From NCBI GenBank assembly GCA_964436255.1, contig CAYTBW010000003.1, positions 51,019 through 115,018 on the forward strand: DNA of 64,000 nucleotides. The letters are read 5' to 3'. Both the position numbers and the translations under genes were made by a program. Shown here piece after piece: positions 18,416-21,784 of this stretch. Every line of letters begins with the position of its first letter. The first letter of the stretch is position 1. The notes below the pieces were generated by a model. That model had not been told where the DNA came from, searched no databases, and saw nothing but the letters and a program-made list of their open reading frames with translations. The stretch is from an uncultured Candidatus Saccharibacteria bacterium (GTDB lineage: Bacteria; Patescibacteriota; Saccharimonadia; CAILAD01; JADZBC01).

Positions 18416-19408
18416 ATGTCATATATAGGAGGGTGTATGACAGGGACAGGAGAATTGGGTCAAGATAAAAAGAGGTTTGTGCCATCGTTAGACCCAGGGA
18501 TATTAGAGACGGACTCAAATGAGGGTAACGAAGGCAAGGCTGAAAAGCTAGGTCATAAGCCGGTAACTACAATTGATGTACGCCGTCATAGCGACTACGA
18601 TGGTGGATTTCCAGATGCAGGTTGGGGTAAGCCTACGGAAGAGGAACAACAAAAACTTGGGCACTTAACCGAGCAAGGCATCGAGAATGCTACTCGCGTA
18701 GCCAGAGAGATAGTCGGCAGGAGGCTTGATGAGTCTGGAGATGATGTTGACTTTTTAGTTATAGCAAGCCCTACCCACTGGCTTGGAGACGAGCAGCTTG
18801 GGCAAAGGGCCATCGAGACAGGAAAGATATACTCAGACGAGATCAAGCGTCAACTTGAAGAAAGAGGCTTGTCGAGTGACCACTTGATCAATACCACTCA
18901 GCCTAAAGCCTTAGAGCACGAGGTCGGCGACGTAAGGGTCGGCAGGAAGATGGTTGAAGCACAGATTTTTGATGACCCCGCGGCACTAGACGTAATTGAT
19001 GAACTCCGTGCTAAATATGGGGGTCAAGGTACGGAGTTTTGGGATGCATGGTATGCCGGCGATGATAGTGAAGCCCTTGATTCTGTAGGAGCCGAGAGCT
19101 CTACTGATGCTGCGGACCGAGCAGACAAAATGATAGAAGCCATTGTTCGCTACGGTAAGATTTATAACACGAAGACGGGCAGGAGCCTAGCAGTAATAGT
19201 CCTAACTCACCATGAAATTTTACAGCCCTATGCGCTACACAAGCTTGGGGTTTCTCAGCAAGAGTTCGTACCCGGTAAAAACGATGGGTTTGAGATAAGA
19301 GTCGAGGATGAAAGGGCAGTTGTATCAATTGCTGGCCACGAGATTGAGCGGACATCAAGACGCGAGAGAAGGTCTGGTGAGAGCCCGGACGTTGCCGAAG
19401 TAGATTAG
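18416..19408 (+). CDS. Histidine-phosphatase-superfamily (phosphoglycerate-mutase/SixA-like) protein, acidic, 330 aa
   Basis: …DVRRHSDYDG… (RHG-type catalytic motif variant) and C-terminal …VIVLTHHEIL…. Confidence 0.45.
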   Translation: MSYIGGCMTGTGELGQDKKRFVPSLDPGILETDSNEGNEGKAEKLGHKPVTTIDVRRHSDYDGGFPDAGWGKPTEEEQQKLGHLTEQGIENATRVAREIVGRRLDESGDDVDFLVIASPTHWLGDEQLGQRAIETGKIYSDEIKRQLEERGLSSDHLINTTQPKALEHEVGDVRVGRKMVEAQIFDDPAALDVIDELRAKYGGQGTEFWDAWYAGDDSEALDSVGAESSTDAADRADKMIEAIVRYGKIYNTKTGRSLAVIVLTHHEILQPYALHKLGVSQQEFVPGKNDGFEIRVEDERAVVSIAGHEIERTSRRERRSGESPDVAEVD

Positions 19409-19421
19409 GTAATCCATCTAT

Positions 19422-20951
19422 ATGACCCCCACTAAGAAATTCAAGCAACTAGTGTTTATTAAAGCGATGGAGATAAATGGGATATCTCCACTACCGCACT
19501 ATTTCGAGGAGATCTATACGAACCGGACAGGTATAAGAAAGCTTGGCTTACGTGGTGATGAGAATTACTTATTCCATAGTGTGAATGGGCTTGGGGCTGG
19601 CTACTACGAGCGGCATGAGATGGAGTTATCTGCTCAATCCGTCTATAAGTTTTTTCAGACAAAGCAGCACCGTGTCGACTTCTTTAAGAAGATAGAGAGG
19701 CTTCTGCAGGATCTCCATGTTTTTAGCGAGATGCTAGATGAGGAAGACCTCTCAGCGCTAAGCGACAAGCAGATAGCTCAATATTTTCTTGAGGCTAACC
19801 GTATGCATGGTAGGGCTTTTTCCCTGTACATCGTTAGCCAACCATATAGGATGGCCATTTTCGAGAAGAATCTTAGGTATGAATTGGGGAAGAGGGTTGC
19901 TGCAAGTCGCATAGACTCGTATTTGGCTGAGCTTGCGACTTCAGAGAAGCCTACGAAGGTCACTGCTGAAGAGCTTGATTGGCTTCGCTTCCTGATAAAA
20001 TACAAAACTAAGTACGGCAATAGCTTAAGTCTTTCCGGTCTTCGAGAGAGCAAGCCTGATATGTACAGTGACTTAGTTAGCCATTTCGAGAAGTATAGGA
20101 CTCTCACGCTTGGCGATGGTAATTGGACATATGATATAAAACATTACCTGAACAACTTGAAGAACGATTACCCAAAAGACCTAAAGGACCTTAAGAAGAG
20201 CCTAAATGAAAGGTCCGGCTATCCTGGCTTTGTAAAAGCTCGTCGCAATTTGCTTATAAGTGAGCTTTATCTGACTCAGGAAACCGTCGATGACCTCGCT
20301 TTTTTGGCGGACATAGGCCATACTCGCCTCGTCATGAGGATTGATGGCTGGTTGCCATTTGTATCTACGATTATTAAGTTAGACATCGAGCTTTCTAAAA
20401 GACTAGATGTGGGGGATGTACTTAACTATATGACCGAAGAAGAGCTGGTAGCCCTGGCCGAGAATGGAGATATGGTGCCCGAGAGAGAACTGCTCGCGCG
20501 GAAAAAAACTGGGGAGTTCCTCATCCTGAATGACCATGGCTCGTACAGAATTTTTTATGGCGCAGAGGCAAATAAGAAGTTTAAATCTCTAGTACCCGAG
20601 GTCGATCATGCAGCTATCACGGAGCTCAAAGGCTCAACCGCTGTAATGGGTAAAATTACAGGGAAGGCATGTGTATACCGATGGGATGATAACTTAGAGA
20701 AGAAGCTCGAAGTCATTAAGAAAAACCCAATCCTAATTACTGGTCAGACGCGACCCTCCATGATGCCTATCATCCGTCTTGCGAAGGGGATCGCCACCGA
20801 TGAGGGTGGTGTTACTTCTCACGCCGCCATAGTGTCACGGGAGCTTGGCATACCGGCAGTCATTGGTACGGTCCACGCTACTAAGGTTTTCAAGGACGGA
20901 GACCTAGTGGAGATTGATGCGGACAACGGAGTAGTGAGGAAACTGTCATGA
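19422..20951 (+). CDS. PEP-utilizing-enzyme family protein with a ~400-aa helical N-terminal domain of unknown specificity and a C-terminal swivelling phosphohistidine domain
   Basis: C-terminal …[25 protein letters not shown]… is the PEP-utilizers signature. Confidence 0.7.
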   Translation: [509 protein letters not shown]

Positions 20952-21784
20952 AATACATATCCCCATTTAGTAGGATTTCAAAGAAGGATTCCATGGTATA
21001 TGGGGGGAAGGTTGCTTCTCTCGGTGAAATGTATTCAGCTGGCATCCCGGTACCAAACGGGTTTGGGGTGTCAATTGAAGCTCATAGAGAATTGGGGGGC
21101 AAGCCCTTTACAGATGAGTTTAGGCAGGACCTCCAGAGCGCGCTTAACGAGCTGGGGCATGACCGTGTTGCAGTTCGTTCATCCGCTGTCGCAGAGGATG
21201 CAGCGGATGCTTCATGGGCTGGCCAGCTGGAGACGTATTTGAACGTCGATGCAGATGGCCTTGAAGATGCTATCAGGAAGTGCTGGAAATCTGTCGATGC
21301 AAGTCATGTTAAGGCATATGCAAAAGGTAAGAAGCTAGGTAAAGACAGTCTGCTGGTTGGCGTCGTAGTTCAAGGCATGGTGGACAGCGAGGCTTCTGGC
21401 GTTATGTTTACCGTCAACCCCGTTACTCACAGTAAGGGTGAACTCATGATTGAGGGCGCTTATGGGCTCGGAGAGACCGTAGTCCAGGGTATCGTAACTC
21501 CCGATAATTGGCTCGTTGATCGTAAGGACCATACTGTGTCGCATTTCGGTATACAGGTTAAGGAGAAGATGATGATTTTTCAGAATGGCAAGAATGTCAC
21601 GTTAGCAGTCCCTGATGCAATAGCCGATAGGGCTGTCTTGATGGAAGAGCAGGTACTTGAGCTGGCAGCGTTAGGTATTAAGATAGAGGATCATTATGGG
21701 GCTCCGCAAGATATCGAGTGGGCTCGCTCTAAGGGTGCTTTCTATATAGTACAGGCACGTCCGATCACAACTCTTGATTCTTAG
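20948..21784 (+). CDS. PPDK/PEP-synthase N-terminal ATP-grasp nucleotide-binding domain protein (stand-alone), translationally coupled to the previous gene by an ATGA overlap
   Basis: …GGKVASLGEM…GIPVPNGF…, VRSSAVAEDAADASWAGQ, …PQDIEWA…YIVQARPIT. Confidence 0.7.
   Translation: MKYISPFSRISKKDSMVYGGKVASLGEMYSAGIPVPNGFGVSIEAHRELGGKPFTDEFRQDLQSALNELGHDRVAVRSSAVAEDAADASWAGQLETYLNVDADGLEDAIRKCWKSVDASHVKAYAKGKKLGKDSLLVGVVVQGMVDSEASGVMFTVNPVTHSKGELMIEGAYGLGETVVQGIVTPDNWLVDRKDHTVSHFGIQVKEKMMIFQNGKNVTLAVPDAIADRAVLMEEQVLELAALGIKIEDHYGAPQDIEWARSKGAFYIVQARPITTLDS

Follow-up and report, generated by a model that had tools for sequence, protein, structure and literature searches.

Candidate Phyla Radiation (CPR) bacteria, Saccharibacteria included, have minimal genomes in which much conserved gene content is without an assigned function. 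Within a 64,000-nt stretch of contig CAYTBW010000003.1 from an uncultured Candidatus Saccharibacteria bacterium (here called the window) lie three genes on the same strand, g1, g2 and g3, encoding proteins of 330 aa (taking the longest open reading frame, ORF), 509 aa and 278 aa. A first-pass annotation, made from the letters alone, had read g2 and g3 as a dikinase divided between two proteins and g1 as a phosphatase that could reverse the reaction. Is this cassette a genuine two-protein dikinase, and what is the phosphatase doing beside it? All three ORFs were recovered where they had been placed (Table 1), as were the motifs reported for them: GGKVASLGEM, VRSSAVAEDA and DIEWA in g3, RRHS and THHE in g1, and the swivel-domain motif of g2. 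Our answer is that g2 and g3 probably constitute a two-component, ATP-dependent small-molecule dikinase of the rifampin phosphotransferase (RPH)/phenylphosphate synthase type, with g1 removing or relocating the phosphate.

Domain composition of the g2-g3 pair

The swivelling phosphohistidine domain proposed for g2 is confirmed by Pfam, with PF00391 (PEP-utilizers) matching aa 433-503 (E 4.5e-24); this part of the protein also matches archaeal phosphoenolpyruvate (PEP) synthase 8a8e at E 8e-19. The catalytic His467 is invariant (51/51 homologues), and Thr465, at the His-2 position as in PEP synthase, is kept in 44 of the 51. Searches of NCBIfam and of PDB sequences match g2 only through its last ~110 residues, and no Pfam or NCBIfam model covers the N-terminal domain, which had been described as helical and of unknown specificity. 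An AlphaFold2 model built from 51 homologues (predicted local distance difference test, pLDDT, 94; predicted TM-score, pTM, 0.90) replaces that description. Foldseek against the PDB gave a whole-length match to RPH alone (5hv1/5fbu/5fbt; E 1e-13, TMq 0.59, ~580 columns, 15-16% identity in the structural alignment), with the remaining matches confined to the swivel domain; the helical domain is thus a substrate-binding domain of the RPH type, hereafter domain X, and a chain with domain X followed by the swivel domain is called X-His. In domain X, E183, H221 and R360 are invariant, and E184, W187, Y225, R302, R306 and E341 nearly so. When the g2-family alignment was used for a profile search of genome contigs, no close relatives were retrieved, the matches being dominated by the generic SHAAIV[SA]RE swivel motif and leading only to distant architectures.

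The reading of g3 as a separate PPDK_N ATP-grasp protein also stood: PF01326 spans it at E 3e-75. Its PDB matches are to PEP synthase 8a8e (2.7e-59), to HpeI, the ATP-grasp protein of a known two-component dikinase (9goj, 1.3e-45), and to RPH (4e-44). About 50-70 residues of an N-lobe insert present in PEP synthase 8a8e, PpsB and RPH are missing from g3, and alignment with Azoarcus PpsB (31% identity) leaves a gap of ~50 residues.

Assignment of the pair to PEP synthase or to rifampin-resistance RPH as families was tried and rejected. The PEP synthase models TIGR01418/PRK06464 give 91 bits for g2 and 247 for g3 (cutoff 598), and the RPH models NF041857/NF000283 give 50.6 and 197.4 bits (cutoff 999). 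No PEP/pyruvate-binding TIM-barrel domain was found by Pfam, NCBIfam or Foldseek in g2, g3 or their neighbours.

A conserved, translationally coupled operon

To find the loci of relatives, g2 homologues covering the range of identities were looked up as exact proteins. Including the window, seven loci have g1, g2 and g3 adjacent, the last two genes being fused in one of them; identity of g2 to the window protein is 74% in L081, 56% in L082, 42% in L084, 39% in L088, 36% in L083 (protein P0059, the fused case) and, by BLASTP, 35% in L092 (P0060). The upstream proteins were confirmed as g1 homologues, and the flanking genes differ in every locus. That minimal genomes keep the cassette whole while identity falls from 74% to about 35% suggests that it matters to the cell.

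The g2/g3 junction of the window, read directly from the sequence as ...TCATGAAA, has a GAGG motif immediately upstream of an ATGA stop/start overlap. A 4-nt overlap is present in five of the six split loci (window, L081, L082, L084, L088), and in the sixth, L092, the gap is 0; the spacing between g1 and g2 ranges from -11 to +53 nt. Such tight spacing together with the recurrent overlap indicates that the module is one translationally coupled operon.

Could the pair instead be a single gene broken by a frameshift or assembly error? The relative in L083, where g2 and g3 are fused in frame into one 815-aa ORF in the same X-His-ATP-grasp order with g1 still upstream, speaks for it. This explanation is effectively refuted, and the first reading as two proteins upheld: an overlap of the ATGA type is found again in four independent assemblies whose g2 proteins are 39-74% identical to that of the window, and exact copies of the g1, g2 and g3 proteins occur on up to six contigs from several sources. 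The fused protein moreover has ~35 aa of additional linker and falls inside the split clade, so that the fusion appears secondary. This placement is seen in an indicative neighbor-joining tree of the X-His region, built without support values, in which all module loci form one clade; fusions in the canonical order ATP-grasp-X-His (P0077, P0079, P0095 and P0109, CPR proteins 28-32% identical to g2) fall in a sister clade and deeper. The likeliest history is that a canonical single-chain ancestor gave rise to the permuted split pair, which was re-fused in one lineage. A second split pair in permuted order, again with a 4-nt overlap, was found on a distant Woesebacteria branch (L002), so that the module clade is not alone in having the permuted rearrangement; more than one lineage has the split and permuted layout.

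The distribution of the module also bears on whether g2 and g3 inactivate a xenobiotic or antibiotic, as RPH does, shielding the epibiont from a host-made compound. RPH is the only solved structure that matches g2 whole-length, the source organism is a Saccharibacterium, and Saccharibacteria often have actinobacteria as hosts, on which the cultured members live. We nevertheless think this improbable, given the vertical rather than patchy or mobile conservation of the module in tiny genomes (judged from the loci and the tree), scores far below the RPH model cutoffs at 15-16% structural identity, and the strict linkage to a phosphatase, which a resistance kinase would not need and which would reactivate the drug.

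Two settings of the module are of separate note. On the 828,923-bp contig of L084 it sits between purL (FGAR-AT) and purN-purM-purB, a single case that may be coincidence or may hint at a link to purine metabolism. L081, which among the long contigs is the most closely related, has a heliorhodopsin gene (PF18761) some 4 kb downstream from the module. Nothing relevant on this dikinase family in CPR or Saccharibacteria came up in a literature search.

The g1 protein, a divergent member of the histidine phosphatase superfamily

The start of g1 is more likely Met8 than the first codon of the longest ORF, giving 323 aa, since public gene calls use Met8 and the N-terminal ~40 residues are unconserved and disordered; this N-terminus is acidic. 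Pfam His_Phos_1 (PF00300) reaches 15.8 bits on g1 against a gathering cutoff of 21.7, and among 23 family members 15 have weak matches only (best E 1e-4), every tested member lying below the gathering score. The histidine-phosphatase fold first suggested for g1 therefore stands on structure and motifs, at a sub-threshold Pfam score. The AlphaFold2 model (pLDDT 82.5, pTM 0.80) has all of its top 50 Foldseek matches in the PDB among histidine phosphatases (probability 1.0, E about 1e-7; TM-scores modest, TMq 0.32-0.45), including PhoE, RosC, phosphoglycerate mutase (PGM), phosphoserine phosphatase and acid phosphatases. The 23-sequence alignment has as invariant elements RH (of RHS), LGHLT..G, SPT...QRAIET, E and HHE; the predicted catalytic residues, also invariant, are R57, H58, R131, E181 and H265/H266 in the 330-aa numbering. 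These match the catalytic constellation of branch 1 of the histidine phosphatase superfamily, and phosphatase or mutase activity through a phospho-His intermediate is predicted. The model further has a large helical cap insert of ~100 aa (about aa 150-250).

An exhaustive profile search retrieved 220 cluster representatives in 1.84e9 (162 at E <= 1e-10), which argues that the g1 family is small, closed and divergent, apart from generic phosphatases. Among its longer proteins (420-583 aa) no informative fusions were found except in P0388 (519 aa), where the g1-type phosphatase domain is followed by a weak, below-threshold match to the P-loop kinase profile AAA_33 (E 0.006). If true, this would be a kinase/His-phosphatase fusion reminiscent of PFK-2/FBPase-2.

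The g1 fold can be turned towards central metabolism: g2 and g3 would be a substitute for PEP synthase or pyruvate phosphate dikinase (PPDK), interconverting pyruvate and PEP (or a related glycolytic intermediate), with g1 a phosphoglycerate-mutase-like enzyme of the same pathway. The g1 fold is that of the dPGM superfamily, archaeal PEP synthase 8a8e is the nearest in sequence to both the ATP-grasp and the swivel domain, a distant lone homologue in L085 lies among GAPDH, RpiB, Rpe and transketolase genes, and an enolase gene is found about 4 kb away in L081. We hold this the least credible of the functional alternatives, very unlikely in view of an RPH-type second domain where PEP synthase has its TIM barrel, of scores far below the PEP synthase equivalog cutoffs, of flanking genes unrelated among the module loci, and of a g1 profile that, within its 220 relatives, retrieves no generic PGMs.

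Recurrent phosphatase genes beside X-His genes

Outside the module clade, too, X-His genes have phosphatase neighbors. A His_Phos_1 protein with an RHGES motif (25.3 bits, above the gathering score) follows the canonical-order fusion P0077 in L091. The lone X-His gene P0072 of L090 overlaps by 4 nt a downstream gene whose product, with RHS...SSNEARAIETA...GHEN, was assigned on motifs alone. Two further lone X-His genes, P0064 (L085) and P0063 (L089), each adjoin an LMWPc gene that is transcribed divergently (Pfam 2.7e-12 and 1.8e-4, the second scoring slightly under the cutoff), and LMWPc homologues also occur beside the canonical fusion P0079 (L001) and in L007. In L086 the protein encoded upstream of the X-His gene contains a C-X5-R-S loop, its assignment resting on that motif. 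Only L087 and L002, among the loci examined, have no phosphatase neighbor. Across the CPR/DPANN relatives a phosphatase thus adjoins the X-His gene in nearly every context examined, and it is either histidine-phosphatase-like or like the low-molecular-weight protein tyrosine phosphatases (LMW-PTPs).

The recurrence of two unrelated phosphatase folds, in varied position and orientation, is good comparative evidence that dephosphorylation belongs to the function of the system. Together with the synteny kept in seven loci, it supports the kinase/phosphatase coupling proposed in the first-pass annotation, in which g1 would reverse the g2/g3 reaction. A wider conjecture is that RPH-like dikinases of CPR/DPANN, whether canonical, split, permuted or arrayed, are obligatorily paired with an interchangeable phosphatase and with it run a reversible phosphorylation cycle, previously unrecognised, that has a single metabolite or protein as its common target. 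We advance this only tentatively, as rather doubtful; the cycle could serve salvage by trap and release, or be a phospho-switch peculiar to ultra-small symbionts, with the window cassette as its Saccharibacteria version.

The same neighborhoods can be read as a regulatory protein-phosphorylation switch, in which g1, or LMW-PTP in the case of the sister clades, takes the phosphate off His467 or Thr465 of g2 or off a protein that g2 phosphorylates. Precedents are SixA acting on NPr, PGAM5, and the control of PEP synthase by PSRP, and protein phosphatases are known in each of the two phosphatase families that neighbor X-His genes (SixA, PGAM5 and Sts-1; LMW-PTP). Two unrelated folds next to X-His, histidine-phosphatase-like upstream or downstream and LMWPc upstream, suggest a shared, conserved target; the PEP-synthase-type Thr at His-2 is kept in the g2 family where HpeH and RPH have Met; and the translational coupling of g1 and g2 points to 1:1 stoichiometry. 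The structural evidence argues the other way. A large helical cap insert like that of g1 usually marks small-molecule histidine phosphatases, the structures that g1 matches best (PhoE, RosC, PGM, phosphoserine phosphatase) are metabolite phosphatases, domain X has the small-molecule-binding fold of RPH, and we know of no RPH-like enzyme that phosphorylates a protein. On balance a switch is unlikely, though less so than antibiotic inactivation.

Proposed mechanism

For the small-molecule dikinase, the phosphotransfer chemistry can be sketched by analogy with the biochemistry of HpeHI, PpsAB and RPH. The ATP-grasp protein g3 would bind ATP, and the swivel domain of g2 would dock on it, His467 attacking the beta-phosphate; gamma-phosphate would be released as Pi and AMP would leave. 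The phospho-His domain would then swing back to domain X and phosphorylate a hydroxyl of the bound substrate. Gene linkage suggests the last step, in which g1, from the same operon, would remove or relocate the phosphate, either directly from the dikinase product or after an intervening step encoded elsewhere. As in the Hpe, Acv and Pps pathways, phosphorylation would thus be transient, whether it serves as a trap, an activation step or a switch. To our knowledge, the characterised two-component relatives all phosphorylate phenolic hydroxyls, and LMW-PTPs prefer aryl phosphates, so that an aryl-OH substrate is, speculatively, a reasonable first guess. A host-derived metabolite, if it is the substrate, would bear on how epibionts scavenge from or sense their hosts.

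Several points weigh against this mechanism. If a kinase and a phosphatase for one compound are co-expressed and the cluster encodes no enzyme acting between them, the outcome without regulation would be a futile cycle. The X-His gene has no adjacent ATP-grasp gene in L085, L087, L089 and L090, and g3 is missing the N-lobe insert that all characterised relatives have, so that its competence is assumed. Finally, g1 could instead be a mutase or act on phospho-g2.

Genomic setting and other observations

Four tRNA genes (Thr-TGT, Tyr-GTA, Thr-GGT, Trp-CCA) precede the module, ending 52-73 nt upstream of g1, and a housekeeping block with ribosomal-protein, rluD and holB-like genes also lies upstream in the window. 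Rfam matched only tRNAs, and a promoter/terminator scan gave nothing above chance. By tblastn no paralogues of g1, g2 or g3 were found in the window. The SecY protein encoded in the window shares 68-70% identity with its best named matches, which carry the label Candidatus Saccharibacteria. A role in defence was considered and dropped, PADLOC giving no defence-system match.

Long tandem arrays of swivel-His (PEP-utilizers) or X-His units were observed in CPR/DPANN loci L006, L007, L011, L014, L017, L018, L021 and L026, with further arrays in P0080, P0085 and a 1159-aa gene of L086 (Table 1). They have up to 9 matches per 12-14 kb locus and sometimes end in a single ATP-grasp; such arrays would be many phospho-carrier/substrate modules served by one nucleotide-binding module.

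Two other parts of the window stand apart. An 873-aa ORF near its end matches the Major Vault Protein shoulder domain (PF11978, 4.2e-25), a Vault_3 repeat and SPFH/Band_7. GC content is 0.65 at 62-64 kb, where this ORF is found, and about 0.49 over the rest of the window, which has no other GC-rich part; the explanation may be foreign DNA, or a chimeric assembly attached to the Saccharibacteria contig. On the opposite strand from the module, a 669-aa fusion of a UbiA prenyltransferase with a GT2 glycosyltransferase adjoins two small Lycopene_cyc-domain proteins (103 and 114 aa); we take the set to resemble the elongase and cyclase for C50 carotenoids of the crtEb/crtYe/crtYf kind, which one would not expect in a reduced CPR genome.

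Table 1. Coordinates of the module, of its surroundings in the window, and of features in related loci (locus given before the colon)
Feature	Position	Strand	Evidence
tRNA cluster	17609-18364	+	
g1, divergent histidine-phosphatase-superfamily protein	18437-19408 (longest ORF from 18416)	+	ORF, alignment, AlphaFold2, Foldseek
g2, whole gene	19422-20951	+	ORF
g2, N-terminal ~400 aa, mostly helical RPH-type ('RIF-binding'-like) substrate-binding domain X	19422-20621	+	AlphaFold2, Foldseek
g2, C-terminal swivel phospho-histidine domain (PEP-utilizers, aa 433-503)	20622-20951	+	PF00391
g2, codon of catalytic His467	20820-20822	+	
ATGA stop/start overlap coupling g2 and g3	20948-20951	+	sequence read directly
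g3, stand-alone minimal ATP-grasp nucleotide-binding protein (PPDK_N, 278 aa)	20948-21784	+	PF01326
UbiA-GT2 fusion and Lycopene_cyc proteins	24338-26982	-	
Vault-protein ORF	61308-63929	+	PF11978
LMW-PTP/ArsC-family genes by sister-clade X-His or ATP-grasp-X-His genes	L085:4405-4836, L089:96-626, L001:1-246, L007:4570-4989	all -	PF01451
Heliorhodopsin gene	L081:11238-11488		PF18761
Array gene (1159 aa)	L086:6479-9958		

Comparison with known dikinases and phosphatases

PEP synthase has the domain order ATP-grasp, His, PEP-binding; the order ATP-grasp, substrate, His that the first-pass annotation gave for both enzyme types holds for the RPH-like enzymes and fails for PEP synthase. In sequence, the g3 ATP-grasp and the g2 swivel domain are nearer to archaeal PEP synthase than to HpeI or RPH, and g2 keeps the Thr of the GGxTSH motif, whereas PEP synthase and PPDK differ in domain order and in having the TIM-barrel domain. 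With RPH (5HV1/5FBT, and the single-chain PRK06241 'PEP synthase-like' enzymes) the window pair has all three modules in common, and presumably the swivel mechanism. RPH, however, is one chain (ATP-grasp, X, His) without a partner phosphatase, while the window has two chains, X-His then ATP-grasp.

On the phosphatase side, g1 has the fold and the RH/R/E/H constellation of branch 1 histidine phosphatases (PhoE, dPGM, SixA, RosC, the FBPase-2 domain), differing from them in RHS instead of RHG, in the helical insert and in the disordered acidic N-terminus. PFK-2/FBPase-2, in which a kinase and a His-phosphatase-fold enzyme are genetically coupled, offers an analogy to the cassette.

The closest designs are the known two-component phenolic dikinases: PpsAB(C) of Thauera/Azoarcus, CreHI of Corynebacterium glutamicum, HpeHI of Rhodococcus rhodochrous GD02 and AcvAB of Sphingobium SYK-6. 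All have domain X and the swivel His on one protein and the ATP-grasp on another, so the split with X-His first, taken initially as unusual, is their standard layout. The phenylphosphate synthase operon on a plasmid of Azoarcus sp. KH32C runs ppsA (X-His, 611 aa), ppsB (ATP-grasp, 375 aa), ppsC (CBS) and then ppc carboxylase genes, including that of the delta phosphatase subunit. Sphingobium acvA and acvB are likewise consecutive with X-His first, and AcvF of that operon is a haloacid dehalogenase (HAD) phosphatase that dephosphorylates the AcvAB product. Gene order is thus as in the window, and a phosphatase is present in both clusters; theirs are HAD-type, whereas g1 has the histidine-phosphatase fold and is immediately adjacent.

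HpeHI has been characterised in detail (Dexter et al. 2025, PMC12167813): HpeH combines an RPH-like substrate-binding domain with the swivel domain, HpeI is a stand-alone ATP-grasp (PDB 9GOJ), and the two form no stable complex. The H581Q variant of the HpeH catalytic His581 is inactive, and HpeH alone transfers phosphate between substrates; PpsAB and CreHI are given as homologues, and homologues 'involved in other processes' were anticipated (PMC12167813). In HpeH and RPH the residue at His-2 is Met (PMC12167813), whereas g2 has Thr.

The window pair has the features of this class: an RPH-type domain and C-terminal swivel His on g2, with the GGxxSHAAI catalytic His motif common to both, and a PPDK_N protein encoded directly downstream. 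Yet the PpsA family model PRK08296 (NCBIfam) gives g2 at best 86 bits against a cutoff of 578, over aa 398-508 only, compared with 1300 bits over the full length of Azoarcus PpsA, and hhalign of the g2 family with PpsA aligned the swivel region alone. g3 is about 100 aa shorter than PpsB and HpeI, there is no CBS protein, carboxylase or aromatic-catabolic gene near the window module, and the organism that has it, an epibiont of the CPR, has a reduced genome. Since g2 falls outside the PpsA model and the fused proteins most closely related to it are CPR enzymes of canonical order, g2 and g3 belong to a separate, CPR-centred family of PpsAB/HpeHI-type design, and the canonical RPH order of those relatives suggests that the split arose independently of the PpsAB lineage.

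The class of two-component dikinases is thereby extended beyond aromatic catabolism, here in a cassette of three small soluble proteins. The split, permuted architecture was already known; what had been uncharacterised is the family itself, its CPR/DPANN lineage, its minimal ATP-grasp and its systematic pairing with a phosphatase, and this pairing is the most original outcome.

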